Assembly (NCBI RefSeq): GCF_035594765.1
Contig: NC_085841.1
Coordinates: forward strand, 62,231,636-62,295,635
Source of the DNA: Anolis carolinensis
Taxonomy: Eukaryota
Direction: 5' to 3'
Length of the DNA stretch: 64,000 nt
Shown here: in pieces, positions 16,597 to 57,835 of the stretch
Layout: every line of letters begins with the position of its first letter
Numbering within the stretch: the first letter of the stretch is position 1
Notes under the pieces: generated by a model
What the model was told of the DNA's origin: nothing
Databases searched by the model: none
What the model saw: the letters and a program-made list of their open reading frames with translations, nothing else
Position numbers and translations under genes: made by a program

Positions 16597-19500
16597 TTCA
16601 TTACAGATATACAACTGATGTAGAATATTGGCGATATAATTATATCATGACATGAAATCCTTTCTCACATGGTGTAGCAATATCACTGCATTGTAAAACA
16701 TGTGTGAAATGAGGGATGGGCTGTTGTGGTATATCCACTCCAGCCTCTGTCATGCGCCACATTGCCACTATTTTGATGCCAGTGTGGTCCATAGGAGAGC
16801 TGGATCCTTCACAGCTACTCCCACCTAATTTCACTCATGATTTACAATAAGTGACAAGTCATTTCTGGTTGCCTTCCCTTTTCTCTCCCCAATAGATTAG
16901 GCCCTTTAGGGTGTCTTTAAGCTTAAAACAGTCAGAGGGGGGATAATTGGACCTCTGGAATCCTTGGCTTCAGGATTCTGGAATTTTATTTGTTAACTCA
17001 TGTGGTGATGCTTATTTGTCCTTTTGGAAAATATTAAACAATATTTCTGCTTGCTAGGCAGGGCTCAGAGAAAGGGTTAATGCACCACTCAGCCAGCACA
17101 CCGCGACATACCTACTAGGCAGCCAGGTAACCCCTCTTTTCCTCATTAACCATAAGCTTCTCTGTCATCTTTTCTTTAATGGATTTCACCAAGCTTTCGT
17201 TCTGCAGATGAGCTATATGCCTTTTCAGTGACAGGAACCAGTATTCGTCTAGGGAATGATACTTAAGCAGATTGTGGATTAATTTCCACTTTTGCAAAAG
17301 GATGCTTTGCAGACTGGACAGTTTATTTGCAGGAGAGATTTAAAACAATTTATTGGGTTTCCAGGGTTACTTTGTGACAGACTTCACAGAAGAGCATGCT
17401 TACTATGGGCTTGCTCTAGAAAATATAGACATGAAATATACAGAGGCAACTGCCTTGCTCTCCTGCATTTACTTTTTAAATTGATCAATGTCTTGGTTGT
17501 GGGCTTTTCCAGGGGCATGTGTTTGTCTGCTGAGGGAAACAAGATGCCTGTTTAGATAGGCTTTTATTCTGATTTTGGAGAACTTTTCTTACATTAAAGT
17601 TGCTCTCATTGACACAAATCCCTTCTCTGGAGAATTGCAATAAATGTTGTCTAATATAATTATACACAAATAGTAGGGATGTAAAACTTCAACTATTTCA
17701 TCTTCCTATTCAAGGAAGAATACTTATAGATGCTTTCTCAGAACTGCAGGATGTTTTTACACTATATTTTCCCCATTTTGAATGTTCCAAACTGTTGTGG
17801 AGGAATTATTTTGTACAGAAAATCATGTGAGGATTTTTCTTTTATCTTGTGCACAAAAAAGGAGAGTTTTTCCTTTTTTTTCCTGACCTGCTTCAGATGT
17901 GATTCTGGCCATGAAAACCTTCAACAACACAATGCTTTATGTGCTTGCTCTTAACCTACAGTATTTGTGTTTGCTCCTTCAACATATATTCTTCCTTCAA
18001 CATATATTCACAGCAATGGGAACTATATTTAGTATAGAAGTGCCTTATTGTTTCCCATAAACACTCCTGGCTCCTGTCTTTCTACCAGTCACCACTGAAG
18101 GTATCTGTTTCCATTTCTTCCACCTTCTCAAGCCTTGAGCTCTTCTTTTCATAAATCCATACCAGTGCAAATATTTTACTAATTTAACTCGACAAAATAA
18201 AACCTGCAAACCAACAAATAAGAAACCAAGCCCTGGGCCCTAAATCATAGGTGGCTGATGTGTGGCATGTGGTGGTGGGTATTTGCATGCAGGGTCTGGG
18301 GGTATACATGTCATGGCAATGATGTGCAAGGGAAAGCCTTGAACAAGTGGGCAGAGAGCAGTGGTGGGTGGCACTCAGTGGGCCACACCAACAGCTGTGC
18401 AAGCCTCATGTGGCCCATGGATCATATGTTGGGCAGGCATGATCTAGGATGACTGACAGCCTAAGTAATTTGCAAAACCCCAAAGCTTTGGCCTCACAAC
18501 AGCTTCTATTGGTATAACATTGGTTCAGCTAACCCTTGGCCATTTTAGCTGGTTATGACCATTCTCCAACCCACATCCAGGTTCCAGATCAGGGGCAAAT
18601 ATACAATGTTCAGTAAAAATTTTACTGACTGCTTAAATAAAGCGACAGGTAAAATGCTTTTAGGAAAACCAAATTCCTCGGGGCTACTGATTTCATTTGT
18701 ATGCCAAAATGGAATAACTTGTTATTGAGAAAGCAGATTGAGAAGGACAAGAGCGTCAGTGTGCGCATAGCATGAGAAAGTAAAATTGGCAGGAATGCAA
18801 CATTTAAATTATGTTTAAAGATAACATGACAAACAACAATCTGAGAAGTCTCTATGAAAAAAGAAAACAGACATATTTGACAACCTATTATTAGACTGAG
18901 AGTTAGACAGAGTGAGAGACATTCTTCTGCATTCTACATTCACAGCCAAACATTTCCTAAAGGAATAAAGGGACAGAAGGTGCAAAATGATATGAATCAT
19001 CTAATGTTCTACAACTATCAGCTCTCCTGAATGGCAAATATGACTCAAATGCTGTTGATGAAACAATAAATGTGTTGTACTATGTATATGACTGTCACGG
19101 GATTTGATACATTCATGTTATTATGCTGAGGGGCATAGTGAAGGAAATATACCGGATTTCTTGTGGTTCCAATCCTTCCTTCCTATTCCTGCAGTTTCTG
19201 GCATCCCCAGGGCTTCAAGTTATACATTTAGTTGAATGCATACTTCTTTCCTAGGGTGCAATCCAGCCAAATGTTCTGAAGGGCTGCACATTTCATTGGA
19301 TGAAATCTAAGCATGTTTTCATTGGCTCAAATAAAGCTTAAAAATTCTGCTCTTTGTTTTTGATCAAACCAGTCAGTTGGCTAATTCCTCCTTTAATTCA
19401 TAGAAGTGTTTTTATTGCCTTGTCCATTATTTGCAGTTGCTTGGGATATTGATTTGGAACATTTAGCGTGTGTAGTCTCTACTCCAGAGTGGCAGCGCAG

Positions 19501-19696
19501 CATTTGAAAATATTACTTTTTTGGCAACAGCTCCCTACATTTCCCAGACACCATAGTTTGTGGGATTCAGGAATTTGTGCCCCCCCCCCAATAATGCTTC
19601 TCTAACTGTGGTCAAGGTAGTAATAATATATTAAGATTTAAGGTGATTAAAAAGAAACGTGGCAGTGATTGTTTAAGCATAGTGCATACACATTGC

Positions 19697-19833
19697 CATT
19701 GTAGTTCTCAGCTTGTGGATCCCCAGATGTTTTGGCCTTCAACTCCCAGAAATCCTAACAGTTGGTAAACTGGCTAGGATTTCTGGGAGTTGTAGGCCAA
19801 AGCATCTGGGGACCCACAGGATGAGAACCACTG
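19697..19833. mobile_element. Palindromic hAT MITE (~135 bp)
   Basis: Near-complete foldback ccccagatgttttggcc...ggccaaagcatctgggg; ends gagaaccactg; same family as 57509-57643. Confidence 0.85.
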
Positions 19834-20251
19834 CATTATATAGTATAGTGTGGAGTATAAATTATTTGCCTTGTAAAGGAAATGAATGCAGTGAATGAGA
19901 AAGGAGAATGTCATGTTTAAAAGTGGCAACATCATGGAGATGAGTGGTGAGGAGTGAAAGTTATCCAGCTGGCTCTTTAACTGCTTGGAAAGCAACACAA
20001 CAGTTTTGTTTGGCAACAGAAATGTCTTTCTCTGCTGTTCCCTCACCTCCATCATACAATATTTCAGAGGTAGAGTTCAGCAATTCTGTTTATGGAGTAT
20101 GGAGAGCAATGGTTAAATAAACATATTGAAGACTTTGTAGTACAAATTCCATCTAAAATAGCAAATGTGTTGTCGAAGGCTTTCATGGCCGGGATCACAG
20201 GGTTGTTGTATGTCTTTCGGGCTGTGTGGCCATGTTCCAGAAGCATTCTCT

Positions 20252-20292
20252 CCTGACGTTTCGCCCACATCTATGGCAGGCATCCTCAGAGG
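20252..20292 (-). ncRNA. Minimal type I hammerhead ribozyme in the Penelope pLTR
   Basis: Mirror copy of 23817-23857. Confidence 0.85.
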
Positions 20293-20405
20293 TTGTGAGG
20301 TATGGATAAACTAAGTAAGGAAAGGAAAGAATATATATCTGTGTCCAAGGTGTGGCAAGAGTCCTTTGTCACTGGGAGCCAGCATTAATGTTTCGGTTAA
20401 TCACC

Positions 20406-22055
20406 CTAATTAGCATTGGAGATGTTTTGTCCCTTGCCTGGGGGCATCCTTTGTTCAGTCAAGCCTTCATTGTGTTGGTTCCCATCTACTGTTTTGATTT
20501 TGGAGTTTTGTAATACTGGTAGCCAGATTTTGTTCATTTTCATGGTTTCTTCCTTTCTGTTAAAGTTGTCCACATGCTTGTGGATTTCAATGGCTTCTCT
20601 GTGTAGTCTGACATGATAGTTGTTGGAATGGTCCAGCATTTTTGTGTTCTCAAATAGTATCCTGTGTCCAGGCTGGTTCATCAAATGCTCTGCTATGGCT
20701 GATTTCTCTGGTTGAATTAGTCTGCAGTGCCTTTCATGTTCTTTGACTCTTGTTTGGGCGCTGCGTTTGGTGGTCCCTATGTAGACTTGTCCACAGCTGC
20801 ATGGTATCCGGTAGACTCCTGCAGAAGAGAGAGGATCCCTCTTGTCCTTCGCTGACCGTAGCATTTGTTGGATTTTCTTCGTGGGTCTGTAGATAGTTTG
20901 TAGGTTGTGCTTCTTCATCAGCTTCCCTATGCGGTCAGTAGTTCCCTTGATGTATGGTAAGAACACCTTTCCTCTGGGTGGATCTTTGTCTTGACTCTCA
21001 TGGCTTGTTCTTGGCCTTGCAGCTCTTCTGATGTCTGTGGTGGAGTATCCATTGGCCTGTAGAGCCCAGTTTAGGTGGTTGAGTTCACCTTGGAGGAGGT
21101 GAGGTTCGCAGATTCTTTGTGCACGGTCTGTCAGGGCTTTGATTGTGCTCCTTTTTTGACTTGGGTGATGGTTGGAGTTTTTATGAAGGTATCTATCTGT
21201 GTGTGTAGGTTTTCTGTAAACTGTGTGGCCCAATTGTTGATTGGGTTTGCGGATGACCAGAACATCTAGAAATGGCAGTTTTCCTTCCTTTTCTTTTTCC
21301 ATGGTGAATTGGATGTTTGGGTGGATGCTGTTAAGATGGTCCAGGAACTTGCTGAGTTCTTCCTCTCCATGGCTCCAAATTGTGAAGGTGTCATCTACGT
21401 ATCTGAACCAAACAGTTGGCTTTTTTGGTGCTGTTTCTAGGGCCTGTTTTTCAAAGTATTCCATATAGAAATTTGCTACTACTGGGCTGAGAGGGCTCCC
21501 CATGGCCACTCCATCCTTCTGTTCATAGAATCCAGTGTCCCACTGAAAGTAGCTAGTGGTGAGGCAATGGTGAAACAGGGCTGTGATGTCTTCTGGGAAG
21601 TTTTGTTTGATTAGTGTGAGGGTGTCAGCTACTGGGACTTTGGTAAAAAGGGACACCACATCAAAGCTGATCAGGATGTCCTTGGTGCTTAGATTGAGGT
21701 TGCTGATCTTTTCTATAAAGTGTGTAGAGTCCTTGATATAATGTGCAGTGAGCCCAATGTGGGTTTGTAGCTGTGTAGCCAGAAATTTTGCCAGGTTGTA
21801 AGTCGGCGATCCAATGGCACTTACAATGGGTCTGAGTGGGATGGAGTCCTTGTGGATTTTGGGGAGTCCGTAAAGCCTGGGTGGGAGGGCTTCTGATTTG
21901 CACAGCTGTTGGCGTATGTCAAAGTTAATGGAGGAGTTCTTGATTAGAGTGTTCGTTTTTCTGGTGATTTTGTTAGTGGGGTCTTGTTTCAGTTTCTTGT
22001 AAATTGTGGGATCTAGAAGTTGTCTGATTTTTTCCTTGTATTGTTTTGTAATCAT
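20406..22055 (-). CDS. Penelope RT + GIY-YIG endonuclease ORF, N-terminally truncated (549 aa from the junction ATG)
   Basis: RT motifs LYGLPKIHK, LRPIV, SFDVVSLFT, GVAMGSPLSP, RYVDD, LPFLD; GIY-YIG GVYRIPCSCGQVYIG; no internal stops. Confidence 0.9.
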   Translation of the reverse strand: MITKQYKEKIRQLLDPTIYKKLKQDPTNKITRKTNTLIKNSSINFDIRQQLCKSEALPPRLYGLPKIHKDSIPLRPIVSAIGSPTYNLAKFLATQLQTHIGLTAHYIKDSTHFIEKISNLNLSTKDILISFDVVSLFTKVPVADTLTLIKQNFPEDITALFHHCLTTSYFQWDTGFYEQKDGVAMGSPLSPVVANFYMEYFEKQALETAPKKPTVWFRYVDDTFTIWSHGEEELSKFLDHLNSIHPNIQFTMEKEKEGKLPFLDVLVIRKPNQQLGHTVYRKPTHTDRYLHKNSNHHPSQKRSTIKALTDRAQRICEPHLLQGELNHLNWALQANGYSTTDIRRAARPRTSHESQDKDPPRGKVFLPYIKGTTDRIGKLMKKHNLQTIYRPTKKIQQMLRSAKDKRDPLSSAGVYRIPCSCGQVYIGTTKRSAQTRVKEHERHCRLIQPEKSAIAEHLMNQPGHRILFENTKMLDHSNNYHVRLHREAIEIHKHVDNFNRKEETMKMNKIWLPVLQNSKIKTVDGNQHNEGLTEQRMPPGKGQNISNAN

Positions 22056-23703
22056 GGAAACAAAACAATACAAGGAAAAAATCAGACAACTTCTAGATCC
22101 CACAATTTACAAGAAACTGAAACAAGACCCCACTAACAAAATCACCAGAAAAACGAACACTCTAATCAAGAACTCCTCCATTAACTTTGACATACGCCAA
22201 CAGCTGTGCAAATCAGAAGCCCTCCCACCCAGGCTTTACGGACTCCCCAAAATCCACAAGGACTCCATCCCACTCAGACCCATTGTAAGTGCCATTGGAT
22301 CGCCGACTTACAACCTGGCAAAATTTCTGGCTACACAGCTACAAACCCACATTGGGCTCACTGCACATTATATCAAGGACTCTACACACTTTATAGAAAA
22401 GATCAGCAACCTCAATCTAAGCACCAAGGACATCCTGATCAGCTTTGATGTGGTGTCCCTTTTTACCAAAGTCCCAGTAGCTGACACCCTCACACTAATC
22501 AAACAAAACTTCCCAGAAGACATCACAGCCCTGTTTCACCATTGCCTCACCACTAGCTACTTTCAGTGGGACACTGGATTCTATGAACAGAAGGATGGAG
22601 TGGCCATGGGGAGCCCTCTCAGCCCAGTAGTAGCAAATTTCTATATGGAATACTTTGAAAAACAGGCCCTAGAAACAGCACCAAAAAAGCCAACTGTTTG
22701 GTTCAGATACGTAGATGACACCTTCACAATTTGGAGCCATGGAGAGGAAGAACTCAGCAAGTTCCTGGACCATCTTAACAGCATCCACCCAAACATCCAA
22801 TTCACCATGGAAAAAGAAAAGGAAGGAAAACTGCCATTTCTAGATGTTCTGGTCATCCGCAAACCCAATCAACAATTGGGCCACACAGTTTACAGAAAAC
22901 CTACACACACAGATAGATACCTTCATAAAAACTCCAACCATCACCCAAGTCAAAAAAGGAGCACAATCAAAGCCCTGACAGACCGTGCACAAAGAATCTG
23001 CGAACCTCACCTCCTCCAAGGTGAACTCAACCACCTAAACTGGGCTCTACAGGCCAATGGATACTCCACCACAGACATCAGAAGAGCTGCAAGGCCAAGA
23101 ACAAGCCATGAGAGTCAAGACAAAGATCCACCCAGAGGAAAGGTGTTCTTACCATACATCAAGGGAACTACTGACCGCATAGGGAAGCTGATGAAGAAGC
23201 ACAACCTACAAACTATCTACAGACCCACGAAGAAAATCCAACAAATGCTACGGTCAGCGAAGGACAAGAGGGATCCTCTCTCTTCTGCAGGAGTCTACCG
23301 GATACCATGCAGCTGTGGACAAGTCTACATAGGGACCACCAAACGCAGCGCCCAAACAAGAGTCAAAGAACATGAAAGGCACTGCAGACTAATTCAACCA
23401 GAGAAATCAGCCATAGCAGAGCATTTGATGAACCAGCCTGGACACAGGATACTATTTGAGAACACAAAAATGCTGGACCATTCCAACAACTATCATGTCA
23501 GACTACACAGAGAAGCCATTGAAATCCACAAGCATGTGGACAACTTTAACAGAAAGGAAGAAACCATGAAAATGAACAAAATCTGGCTACCAGTATTACA
23601 AAACTCCAAAATCAAAACAGTAGATGGGAACCAACACAATGAAGGCTTGACTGAACAAAGGATGCCCCCAGGCAAGGGACAAAACATCTCCAATGCTAAT
23701 TAG
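22054..23703 (+). CDS. Penelope RT + GIY-YIG endonuclease ORF, N-terminally truncated (549 aa)
   Basis: Translation identical to the minus-strand arm after residue 2. Confidence 0.9.
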   Translation: METKQYKEKIRQLLDPTIYKKLKQDPTNKITRKTNTLIKNSSINFDIRQQLCKSEALPPRLYGLPKIHKDSIPLRPIVSAIGSPTYNLAKFLATQLQTHIGLTAHYIKDSTHFIEKISNLNLSTKDILISFDVVSLFTKVPVADTLTLIKQNFPEDITALFHHCLTTSYFQWDTGFYEQKDGVAMGSPLSPVVANFYMEYFEKQALETAPKKPTVWFRYVDDTFTIWSHGEEELSKFLDHLNSIHPNIQFTMEKEKEGKLPFLDVLVIRKPNQQLGHTVYRKPTHTDRYLHKNSNHHPSQKRSTIKALTDRAQRICEPHLLQGELNHLNWALQANGYSTTDIRRAARPRTSHESQDKDPPRGKVFLPYIKGTTDRIGKLMKKHNLQTIYRPTKKIQQMLRSAKDKRDPLSSAGVYRIPCSCGQVYIGTTKRSAQTRVKEHERHCRLIQPEKSAIAEHLMNQPGHRILFENTKMLDHSNNYHVRLHREAIEIHKHVDNFNRKEETMKMNKIWLPVLQNSKIKTVDGNQHNEGLTEQRMPPGKGQNISNAN

Positions 23704-23816
23704 GGTGATTAACCGAAACATTAATGCTGGCTCCCAGTGACAAAGGACTCTTGCCACACCTTGGACACAGATATATATTCTTTCCTTTCCTTACTTAGTT
23801 TATCCATACCTCACAA

Positions 23817-23857
23817 CCTCTGAGGATGCCTGCCATAGATGTGGGCGAAACGTCAGG
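23817..23857 (+). ncRNA. Minimal type I hammerhead ribozyme in the Penelope pLTR
   Basis: cct-CTGAGGA-t-gcctgc[catagat]gtgggc-GAAA-cg-TC-agg: core boxes, 3-bp stem I, stem II, palindromic ACGT stem III. Confidence 0.85.
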
Positions 23858-23974
23858 AGAGAATGCTTCTGGAACATGGCCACACAGCCCGAAAGACATA
23901 CAACAACCCTAAAATAGCAAAGCTCTCTGCTAAACCAACATCAATACAAACTAAACATTTCACTTTTAATAGAA

Positions 23975-45930: not shown

Positions 45931-46883
45931 TTTACATCGCACCTCTGTAAAACTTAGCCGGACTTCTAATACAATCAACCTTGAGATCCAAAGGCAATAA
46001 GCACGACAAGTGGTAACGATTTCAGAAATCAGTTTATTAGAGAAAGAGACATGGTGACAAAAACAGAAGAAATAAGAACCAAGCAAGTTCTCCTCAATCC
46101 ATTTCTGGGAACCCCTTGAACGGCAACAAGGATGACCCCAGGCTGGCCACCAACATGCAGCATTCTCCTGGTCTTAGCCTGAATCGAGGTTCAACATTAG
46201 GCTGGGATGTCAGGATTTTTCTATCTTACTGAAGCCAAGAGGCTAATGGATCACATGCCTTTTAGATCAGCCAGCTGGACTCCCGCTCATTCCATCCCAA
46301 TTTGTTCTTAACAATGAAAGTAGGCATAAGAAAGAGGGGTAAAATGATATTTTTCACATAAAAGAGATTTCATTCCTTTAGGGTTTCTTTTGAAGGGGCA
46401 ATGGGTATAGAAAAATGGGATAACTGTGCACCCCACCTAGCTTGCCTCCTCAAGTTAACAATAGTCTTCCGCGAGTGCCCTCTACTCCACGCCCTGGGGT
46501 ACACAGTGGCCCATTTCAAGCACATTTGCCATTTGCCCTATTTGAAAAAGTATAAACCCCTTCAAACCCCTTCAAAACAAAACTAGCCTGATTCCAAAGA
46601 ATTGAGAAATACAATCTTTGGCCTGATATCCAATTGTAGCATCCATACAATATCCAGCAACCATGGTTCCTATGACAAAAGGTGTTGCTTGCACAAGGAT
46701 CGGGAGGTCATGTTGCCTACTCCTTGCAGCAGGGGTATGGATGCTTTTTCTTGTGCAGTCAGGTCAGCTGGCATCTGAGAAGGTGGTTGAAGTTTGATAT
46801 GTTGTAAAAGGCTTTCATGGCCAGAATCACTGGGTTGCTGTGAGTTTTTCAAGCTGTAAGGCTATGTTCCAGTAGCATTTTCT

Positions 46884-46924
46884 CCTGACATTTTGCCCGC
46901 ATCTGTGGCAGGCTTCTTCAGAGG
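46884..46924 (-). ncRNA. Decayed hammerhead ribozyme of the older Penelope
   Basis: cct-ctgaaga-a-gcctgc..gcgggc-aaaa-tg-tc-agg; GAAA changed to AAAA and ACGT to ATGT. Confidence 0.7.
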
Positions 46925-46938
46925 TTCTGTTGGCAATG

Positions 46939-47437
46939 ATCATCATCATTCATCATCATCATTTAATAACTTATTAATCGCCCTCCATCCACGATGCTCT
47001 AGGCGATTTACAAGATAAAATTGTAAAGGATAAAAATACATACATAAAAATATTAATAAAATTAACATAGATTAAAAGCTCTAGTAAAGAGCCAGGTCTT
47101 GAGTGCGAGGGTAAAAGGCCCTAACTCACGCATGGCTCTCATATAGGGCGGCAAGGCATTCCATAAGGCAGGGGCAGAAATAGAAAAAGCTCTGCGCCTG
47201 GTCCTTTCCAAGTGCACTTCTCTAGGACCCGGTACATAAAGTAAGTCTCGTTGGGATGGTCGTTGCGACCTCCGATGATGGGAGAAGGAGAGACGGTCCC
47301 TAAGGTGCGATGGGCCCTGGCCGTAAAGGGTTTTGAAGGTCAGAACTAGCATCTTATATAGACCACGGTAATCAGTTGGGAGCCAATGCAGATGCTGCAG
47401 CACTGGTGTTATGTGGCATTTCATGGGTGTTCTTGTG
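46939..47437 (-). mobile_element. L2 LINE 3' fragment (young)
   Basis: HITPVLQHLHWLP...RAFSISAPALWNALP...LKTWLFTRAF*; (atg)n tail. Confidence 0.92.
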
Positions 47438-48625
47438 GATGTTAGTGGAGTGTATATATATCTGTGGAATGTCCAGGGTGGAAGAGAAAACTCTTGTCTG
47501 TTAAACAAGTGTGAATGTTGCAAATTAGCAAGCATTGTGTAGCCATGAATCTGTAAAGTCAATCAGTGAAAGTATCTGCATAGAGGTAGCCTGGGCTTTG
47601 TTGCCTGGAGGCTGTCTGGAGTTCTCCTGTTTCTGAGCTGTGTTCTTGATTCTGATTTTTTTTAAATACTGGTAATCAGATTTTGTTCATTTTTATGGTT
47701 TCCTCCTTTCTGTTGAAATGACCCACCTGCTTGTGGATTTCAATGGCTTTTTTGTGTAGTCTGACATAAAGGCTGTCAGAGTGGTCTAGAATTTGTGTTT
47801 TCTCAAATATTAGTCTGTGGTTCCTGGTTGGTTCATCAAGCACTCCGCTATAACTGACTTCTCTGGTTGAATTAGTCTGCAATGACTTTCATGTTCTTTG
47901 ATTCATATCTGAGCGCTTCGTTTGAAGTCCCTGTATAGACTTGTCCACAGCAGCATGGTATACGGTAGACTTCTGTAGCGTTTAGTGGATCCTTCTTATC
48001 CTTATCTCGTGGCTTTTCTTGTTCTTGCAGCTCTCCTGATGTCTGTCATGGAACACCCATTAGCCTGTAGAGCACAGTTTAGGTGGTTCAGTTCACGTTG
48101 GAGCAGGTGGGGTTCACAGTTCCTGTTTGTGCGGTCTATCAAGGACTTTAATTGTGCTTCTTTTTTGACCTGGGTGATGGTTGGAGTTTTTATCTGGGTA
48201 TCCATCAGTGTGTGTAGTCTTTTTGTAAACCATGTGGCTCAATGGTTGATTTGGTTTGCTGATAACTAGAAATGGTTGATTTACTTCATGTTCTTTTTCC
48301 AAGGTGAATTGGATGTTTGGGTGGGTGTTGTTGATGTGATCCAGGAAATTGTTCCATTTTTCTTCTCCATGGCTTCAAATGGTGAAGGTGTCATCCAAAT
48401 ATCGGAACCATACGGGGGCTTTTTTGATGCTATTTCCAGGGCCTTTTTCTCAAATGGCTTTTCTTTCTTTTCTTGTTATGTTGCTGGAGGGATGCTTTGC
48501 TTCCTCAGGATCCTCAGTGTTACCCTCTAACTTCTGCCGCTTCTTCCTCCTTTTGCTCAGATGAATACTTCGCTGCCTGAGGGTTGACAATCGATCAGAA
48601 AATCATGGTCCGCAAATTATTCAGT

Positions 48626-53285: not shown

Positions 53286-53414
53286 NNNNNNNNNNNNNNN
53301 NNNNNNNNNNNNNNNNNNNNNNNNNNNNNNNNNNNNNNNNNNNNNNNNNNNNNNNNNNNNNNNNNNNNNNNNNNNNNNNNNNNNNNNNNNNNNNNNNNNN
53401 NNNNNNNNNNNNNN
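53286..53414. other. Assembly gap
   Basis: Run of n. Confidence 1.
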
Positions 53415-55950: not shown

Positions 55951-57508
55951 TTTATTTATTTACTCCTTCTTTAACTATTGTAACTGTAGTCTCCTTATGG
56001 CATGGTTTCTCAGTTTCCATTGGTTACACCACTGTTTCTTTTAGAGGGGAAATGACACAAAAATTCTACTGAACAGTTGGGTCTTTTCTGTTTTTCCTCT
56101 GTAGCATTTCACCATCTTTGTTATGCAATGATCCAATTTTCTTGTTCTGGGTGGGTGGGTCCTCATGAAAGTAATCAGTTGCCTGACTGGCTGCTAAGAA
56201 TAAAAATGAAAGTAAAACCTTACATATTGTTATTGTTGTTATTATTTTTTCCTTCCTTGACAATAACTGGAAAACTCCTAAAGGACTGGGTATAAACAGA
56301 TTTAGAATGAAAGTATGATGAGCACATATGAGCAAAAGAACAGAAAGATATTAATGTATTTTAGGTAACATGGTTCTCATTTATTTCTTCTGTAAATAAA
56401 ATGAGAGAAAAAGTCATATTCCACTGACCAACAGGTCTATATGGGAAGAATTGATACAAGAGAACAAATAACTCCACATGGATTAATTTTGCATTTCAAA
56501 ATCATGAAAACATAACTCATGTTCGATGTAGCTATGATATTATTAATGTTTCCGTTTTGTTGTTCTACCTTTTTATGTTGATATTTGGCAGCAAATGTGA
56601 AGGGAAGGCAGGCCAGTTGGATGGAACAGCAGGTGGTTTGAATGACTGAGTACAGTAACTCATATTGTGTTCCTATATCACAAATTTGGCATTGTTACAT
56701 AGCAGCAGGGAAACTGTTTCTAGTGGGCTGTGGTGTGTGCGTGTGCCTTCTCCCCCATAGTTACCTCTTTATTTCGCTCCCTCTCTATAGACTGCAAAGG
56801 TCACAGCCGGAGAGTTCTGCTGCCTTCACTAATAAGTTTTTGAAATGGAGTACACTTCTCAGCCTGCTTTCCCCACACAGACATCTTGCAAAAGACAGAA
56901 TGATTAGCTTGTCTGCAGATGGGATTTGGAGAAATAGTGGCGCTGTTAGAAAGGCTCTGATATTCAGTGGATTGATTGAGGTACAGTAGATTCAAGGACA
57001 AGCTGACATATCCTCTGATTCTTGACAGGTTTTTAAGCAGGAAGAAATGCTGGTGGAGGTTAAAAGTGAAGCATGGATACATCCCGTGGACATAACTGGA
57101 TAGCTGTTCACTGCTTCAGCAGACTGTCATTCATGACTTGCTACAGGCAATAGCACCAGGAGGTCAGCACTGCAAATATAGCTCTATTAAATATGCAGTG
57201 CCACAAACGACAAGGTATGAATAAAAACTTCTCACCTGGAAAATGTGCCATGGAACAATACATTGAATACTTGAACATTAGGTTTGTTTTGCAGCAAAGA
57301 TTTATATTTCCTTTGGGCACTGATGCTTGCAATGTTTGGGCCGATGCCAGTATCTCAGCCAGATCCATTGGTGAAGTCTTCCCTAAATCCCACTTCAAGA
57401 ACAAAGAATTCCAAAACATCATTCTAGTGCCCTGAGCCATGTTTGATGGAATTGGATTTTGCCAACATTTGGATTTTCTACAGTGCCCCAAAGCAATTTC
57501 CTTTAGGG

Positions 57509-57643
57509 CAGTGGTTCTCAATCTGTGGGTCCCCGGGTGTGTTGGCCTACAACTCCCAGTGATCCCAACCAGTTTACCAGCTCTTAGGATTTCTGGGAGT
57601 TGAGGGCCAAAACATCTGGGGACCCACAAGTTGAGAACCACTG
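57509..57643. mobile_element. Palindromic hAT MITE
   Basis: TIR cagtggttctcaa / ttgagaaccactg. Confidence 0.88.
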
Positions 57644-57835
57644 AGCTAGAGCCTAATTTCCAGAACACTGTCCAACTATCAGTCAGGCCTAGATAGGTCC
57701 AACAAATCTCACTGACAGAGATGGGAGGTTAGGAAGGGAAGATTTTCTACACACTCTTCAAACCTGGCAAATGTGAGAGTAATAGCAATATTGTTGAAGT
57801 GGGAATGATTGTATATAGAGTTGTTTAAATGTAAT

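Follow-up and report, generated by a model that had tools for sequence, protein, structure and literature searches.

Two identical, 5'-truncated Penelope copies placed head to head within a single target-site duplication in Anolis carolinensis

In the genome of Anolis carolinensis, a Poseidon-type Penelope-like element (PLE) is present as two identical, 5'-truncated copies that stand head to head within one 13-nucleotide (nt) target-site duplication. The insertion lies in a stretch of 64,000 nt, referred to here as the window (assembly GCF_035594765.1, contig NC_085841.1, positions 62,231,636 to 62,295,635 of the forward strand), and all coordinates below are those of the window. We hold the family assignment and the origin from a single integration event with high confidence. 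Priming of complementary DNA (cDNA) from both nicks of the target is well supported, by the biochemistry reported in PMC11167929 and by the positions of the copy ends in the window. For the way in which the centre of the palindrome was formed, we favour, at a probability of roughly 0.55, a route in which two cDNAs were made on one RNA.

The two 1851-nt arms aligned with 0 mismatches across a gap of 10 nt, and the left copy alone carries 33 additional nt, without a mirror partner, that constitute a one-sided tail (Table 1). The same 13-nt direct repeat bounds both outer ends and is AT-rich (10/13); at 2493 pairs of positions drawn at random from the window, this search returned direct repeats of 9 nt at most. 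At the centre, the 5' end of the right copy falls at codon 286 (nt 856 of the open reading frame, ORF) and that of the left copy 12 nt away at nt 868, so the spacer between the arms is element sequence belonging to the tail-less arm only. In three of four public sequencing runs (X1, X5 and X8), loose ends continue upstream of 22048 with native letters that differ from those of the window, which likewise shows the 2-nt overlap at 22048-22049 to be real. The nearest run of N is more than 29 kb from the palindrome, the single gap of the window being at 53286-53414. An earlier note on this DNA had described two 1851-bp arms without mismatch, one enclosing duplication, a left arm longer by a 33-nt tail and a central 2-nt microhomology with a 10-nt spacer, and these measurements agree with it on each count. 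The note had also named truncated inverted copies and a 30-40 nt tail as hallmarks of the Penelope family; this family assignment is supported by the reverse-transcriptase match, the GIY-YIG motifs, the pseudo-long terminal repeat (pseudo-LTR), the tail and the duplication found here.

The frame encoded by the arms, open in both of them, matched RVT_1 in Pfam (E 8e-14), and motifs of a C-terminal GIY-YIG endonuclease with CCHH residues occur at positions 414 (GVY), 420 (CxC), 426 (YIG) and 440 and 457 (EH). Pfam itself returned no GIY-YIG match, while an Atlas feature search returned, at 0.97, a cluster in which 19% of the members carry GIY-YIG; among solved structures, matches to reverse transcriptases were weak (best E 0.006). 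Of the homologues, an 836-residue protein labelled Anolis carolinensis (P0001, from a cluster of 49) ranks first, with 546 of 550 residues identical, and a full-length A. carolinensis protein, P0126, differs from the arm frame at 1 of 551 residues. The open frame and the single difference from P0126 show that the insertion is very young. It is a dead-end copy without the first 285 codons.

An ATG 122 nt past the stop codon opens a peptide identical in 40 of 40 residues to the N-terminus of P0126, which argues that the template was an RNA of more than unit length. A hammerhead-type core overlaps this ATG in both arms and has, by eye, the same letters as the template printed in PMC11167929. Hammerheads in PLEs are already known (PMC4209133); here, the Rfam search returned no hammerhead family among 29 matches, and the monomer fold was without the ribozyme. 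At the centre of the palindrome, miRNA-hairpin models of Rfam all stayed below their gathering scores and are accounted for by the palindrome itself.

The closest characterized relative is Poseidon_Ac (PAc) of A. carolinensis, the subject of PMC11167929. Compared by eye with the printed template, the window element is alike in ORF start, hammerhead position and tail region. Its tail-region peptide is also identical (40/40) to that of P0130, a protein whose C-terminus matches the target printed in that paper by eye, and the window copy ends on the tail boundaries in an AT-rich target. In contrast, copies of the P0130 type differ from the arm frame at 25 residues over positions 286-836 (against 1 for P0126), mostly towards the C-terminus, and the 5' part of the pseudo-LTR differs as well. 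The divergent C-terminus places the window element outside the Poseidon_Ac subfamily, and on sequence comparison it is best assigned to the endonuclease-bearing Penelope/Poseidon PLEs as a sister subfamily of Poseidon_Ac.

The outer ends bear on priming at both nicks. The left copy ends at ORF +118, with +119/+120 common to the duplication, and the right copy ends at +83, with +84/+85 common; the 40/40 peptide match to P0126 anchors this numbering, and the next native residue in P0001 set the extent of sharing with the duplication. The sequence alone permits 33-37 nt between the ends and a stagger of 9-13 nt. If both outer 2-nt overlaps represent primer pairing, the likelier values would be starts 35 nt apart and nicks 13 nt apart with 3' overhangs. 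Of the earlier proposal that both nicks primed cDNA from two starts 33 nt apart, the use of both nicks and of two starts is thus supported, largely by PMC11167929, while the offset is more likely 35 nt.

In that paper, purified Poseidon_Ac protein cleaves and extends both target strands in vitro, and reverse transcription begins at two internal sites, the main one 111-118 nt into the ORF. The 30-40 nt tail corresponds there to the stretch separating the two start sites, and dimer formation is predicted for the protein. The left end of our insertion at +118 coincides with the main start; for the other site, no position is stated in the text. Furthermore, all three junctions of the insertion share exactly 2 nt. 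The chance of an overlap of at least 2 nt is 0.074 per outer junction and 0.18 at the centre, with a product of about 0.001; taken alone, the central overlap is weak evidence (chance about 18%).

Four public sequencing runs were compared with positions 19300-22100, which cover the left half of the insertion. Ends at 20165-20168 or 20200-20202 appeared in 5 of the 15 joints listed (of 355) and in 5 of the 12 entries of a second listing (of 568), indicating that both outer ends recur in other genomic copies.

The route that we favour would begin with the element enzyme nicking both target strands, probably leaving 13-nt staggered 3' overhangs that each pair over 2 nt with the RNA. Each 3' end would then prime its own cDNA, one at +118 and the other at +83, probably on one tandem RNA. 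The enzyme starting at +83 would lead and the one starting at +118 would trail on the same molecule. Once the leader stalls or the RNA ends, the tail-bearing arm would stop 12 nt short of the tail-less arm. The two cDNA ends would likely be joined through 2 common bases, and host repair would presumably fill in the second strands. This order of leader and trailer predicts a tail-less arm that is longer at its 5' end, and in the window the tail-less arm indeed reaches further 5' than the tail-bearing arm.

A centre of this kind could also arise by fold-back, which we regard as possible and less probable. Here, one long cDNA begun at +83 would pair with itself at the 2-nt match, leaving a loop of 10 nt, and be copied into the second arm, while the tail and the connection with the opposite end of the target would come from a short second cDNA begun at +118. 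Such a route explains the tiny spacer, its origin from one arm and the perfect identity of the arms together, and in PMC3846280 the palindromes often found at inverted junctions are interpreted as products of self-priming, in that case with an antisense template. However, no hairpin is predicted at the 3' end of the cDNA (0 kcal/mol over the final 40 nt; z-scores of 0.4-0.6 at three lengths), and the absence of the tail from the template arm means that a second priming event is still required.

A second locus bears on this choice. In the gene model P0123, a stretch of 55 residues is read antisense to the ORF (nt 863-699), and the model then continues in sense from codon 353 (maximum of 8 in shuffled sequence). 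The screen recovered the window junction as a control, and the window copy has no AG directly before codon 353; splicing could also have joined the two parts. By its sequence, P0123 likely represents another junction of the head-to-head type, at which some 360 nt separate the 5' ends; near-symmetry of the arms, as in the window, would then not be a rule. For fold-back, an offset of this size demands a long loop. Among the gene models, one of the 14 A. carolinensis proteins had an antisense N-terminus and none of the 14 from A. sagrei did, in a screen that covered the 15 listed of 49 cluster members and in which most models start at a native Met that would hide any junction.

The offset at the P0123 locus also indicates that the two ends can differ, as expected from two separate RNAs or from independent drop-offs, the 12-nt spacing in the window then being due to chance, to end trimming or to a pause site common to both. 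From the many copies of the family, a reader would single out the most symmetric, and two RNAs could look alike, given that three stretches of donor proteins differ by just 1-4 residues. We nevertheless consider this origin quite unlikely. Under a uniform model, ends formed independently would lie within 12 nt of each other in about 1% of cases, and the arms show 0 nucleotide differences. Moreover, depth in the runs drops steeply towards the 5' end of the element, which indicates that two such long cDNAs would be rare. A gain of symmetry after insertion was rejected on general grounds: palindromes tend to lose central symmetry, not gain it.

Very unlikely, in our judgement, is that the outer ends are real and the interior is a product of the assembly, with arms homogenised or a centre mis-joined within a high-copy repeat. 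Structures of this type are known to trouble assemblers (PMC8557442), and neither the central nor the right junction was among the entries listed from the four public runs. The 15 joints listed contained no strand change, and among the 24 loose ends listed (of 4127) none corresponded to an empty site. A 4-nt palindrome in the spacer (22053-22056) supplies an in-frame ATG for both arms; the 549-residue product of the right arm starting at this ATG is on record as a predicted protein on two contigs, the longer of 369 Mb, whereas the junction protein of the left arm was not on record in the protein look-up.

The 369-Mb record argues against an assembly product, though it is not independent of the window, and neither it nor the missing left-arm record amounts to independent proof. 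The anatomy speaks against it as well. The mirror symmetry stops exactly at the family-wide ends, with flanks that differ and one duplication; the single 13-nt repeat assigns both flanks to one site. The centre, moreover, consists of native sequence in frame, with a 2-nt overlap. Finally, the left junction is present in run X1, where a contig spans 19809-20187 without difference and reaches 22 nt into the tail; this is below the 31-letter threshold for bridging, and X1 may be the source sample.

Several points weigh against twin cDNAs on one RNA. The earlier note had named a shared template end or fold-back as the origin of the closely spaced cDNA stops. A single locus cannot separate twin cDNAs from fold-back, as both yield the same sequence, and the polarity of leader and trailer is one observation, equivalent to a coin-flip. 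The trailing enzyme must displace 1.85 kb of cDNA, and strand displacement of such length does not appear in the accessible text of PMC11167929. At an assumed error of 5e-4 per base, identical arms would result from just 16% of twin syntheses (69% at 1e-4). The 5' ends at the P0123 locus lie about 360 nt apart, and none of the entries listed from the four public runs, which would be the independent data, showed the centre. At the outer ends, 6 of the 12 entries of the second listing end at 20227-20239 (+45 to +57), which reveals related elements with further ends, and the ATT motif preferred in PMC11167929 lies inside the duplication, away from the inferred nicks.

Twin cDNA synthesis on one RNA can be taken a step further, and we do so tentatively, regarding the extension as doubtful. 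The locus would then be the footprint of a dimeric Penelope enzyme, with two reverse transcriptases working in tandem on one RNA. The tail would mark the trailing enzyme, the 12-nt gap its stall behind the leader, and tail-only remnants such as that at 17898-17931 would be leftovers of excised palindromes. If true, the tail, the inversion and the palindromes of Penelope would follow from one testable rule.

Much of this architecture is standard for the class. Canonical endonuclease-bearing Penelope insertions combine a 5'-truncated copy with an adjacent inverted copy and a tail of 30-40 nt at one end (PMC8557442), and palindromes at inverted Penelope junctions are abundant (PMC3846280). With canonical Penelope and Pen2a_Av, as described in these two papers, the window insertion shares the truncated and inverted copies, the one-sided tail and the palindromic inverted junction, with duplications of 8-10 nt in those elements. 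It differs in that a short inverted pseudo-LTR there accompanies a long unit, whereas both copies in the window are 1.85 kb long and broken inside the ORF. LINE-1 twin priming (PMC2912911) offers a further parallel: one RNA is primed from both ends of the target, short complementary stretches let the cDNAs anneal, and microhomology occurs at the outer and inversion junctions. In LINE-1, however, the second priming takes place far upstream and the cDNAs cover different segments. In the window, the starts are probably 35 nt apart and both copies cover the same 1851 nt, giving a palindrome without poly(A), so the insertion, though it would work like twin priming, does not have that structure.

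Inverted Penelope copies of Drosophila (PMC3681739) likewise form long inverted repeats able to give double-stranded RNA, and small interfering RNAs (siRNAs) matching the inverted regions are reported there. All elements of this picture have been published: copies placed head to head, palindromes at the junctions, tails on one side and siRNAs derived from repeats of this kind. The present locus is a clean further example. How PLEs build inverted copies is still described as undefined (PMC8557442), and the accessible text of PMC11167929 contains no model of head-to-head insertions. Our literature search, in which most hits were judged from listings, found no paper applying twin priming on one RNA to Penelope palindromes, a weak negative with the reviews of 2005-2006 outside its coverage. 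In the window, a very young copy with four ends and three 2-nt overlaps intact links the start sites found in vitro to a real two-ended insertion. It also suggests a simple genome-wide test, based on which arm bears the tail, the spacing of the 5' ends and private mutations common to both arms.

Repeats that are long, identical and close together promote recombination. Replication forks stall at inverted Alus separated by 12 bp (PMC7999016), and by such precedents it is reasonable to expect that the palindrome may be unstable and have the potential to form double-stranded RNA. The palindrome shows no visible decay, in keeping with its youth. Among the public records listed as carrying this sequence, none is RNA. 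As both pseudo-LTRs face away from the centre, a hairpin RNA could arise only by read-through or from a promoter in antisense orientation, and such a promoter has been suggested in PMC3846280. If palindromes of this kind persist or are excised in the germ line, they may be a natural source of deletions and double-stranded RNA.

Table 1. Features of the head-to-head insertion, in window coordinates.
Feature	Position	Strand	Remarks
Target-site duplication, left copy, 13 nt	20153..20165	.	last 2 nt also ORF +119/+120 of the element
One-sided tail	20166..20198	-	bounded by the two start sites of reverse transcription (PMC11167929); covers +86 to +118 in the ORF of the following tandem unit
Left arm	20199..22049	-	from ORF nt 868 (codon 290) through stop and pseudo-LTR to +85 of the next ORF start; 5'-truncated
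Hammerhead-type core start, left copy	20274..20289	-	overlaps the ATG that starts the ORF (20283); same arrangement in PMC11167929; Rfam gave no hammerhead match
2-nt overlap common to the 5' ends of both copies	22048..22049	.	
Open frame, residues 286-836	22048..23703	+	reverse transcriptase, then GIY-YIG endonuclease; no stop or shift
10-nt spacer	22050..22059	+	native element sequence, ORF nt 858-867, only in the right (tail-less) copy
Right arm	22060..23910	+	reverse complement of the left arm without any difference; outer end at ORF +83 (+85 counting the 2 nt common to the duplication)
Pseudo-LTR and next ORF start	23704..23910	+	122 nt from stop to ATG (ATG at 23826); hammerhead-type core 23820-23835
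Target-site duplication, right copy, 13 nt	23909..23921	.	first 2 nt also ORF +84/+85

Other traces of the family occur in the window and in the reads. Over the hammerhead and tail region (20146-20333), the summed contig depth is far above that of the ORF, a depth that is not a copy number. Other upstream sequences join at 20301-20303, and extra ends occur at +45 to +57; together, these three observations point to abundant short relatives of this region. A solo tail on the forward strand (17898-17931) comprises ORF +85 to +118 only, with 30 of 34 positions identical and no match upstream. It fits a deleted palindrome or an extreme truncation; the search for a decayed duplication around it gave nothing above chance, with 13-21% of random sites equalling the result. 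At 46797-48454 on the reverse strand lies an older single Penelope copy, about 81% identical, which ends at +119 and is split by another repeat; neither an inverted partner nor a convincing duplication was found for it.

In the surroundings, 0 of 132 open frames of at least 62 residues at 5,000-44,000 outside the element matched Pfam; no host gene was placed there, and an intronic position would be compatible with this result. A small high-copy inverted-repeat element (19701-19834) lies 320 nt to the left of the insertion and has a further copy at 57501-57651. Elsewhere in the genome, Penelope ends join elements of this type at both start sites. On the forward strand at 1398-3540, frames of a PIF1-like helicase (Pfam E 5e-44 and 2e-11) are present, which we take to be probably the remnant of a Helitron.

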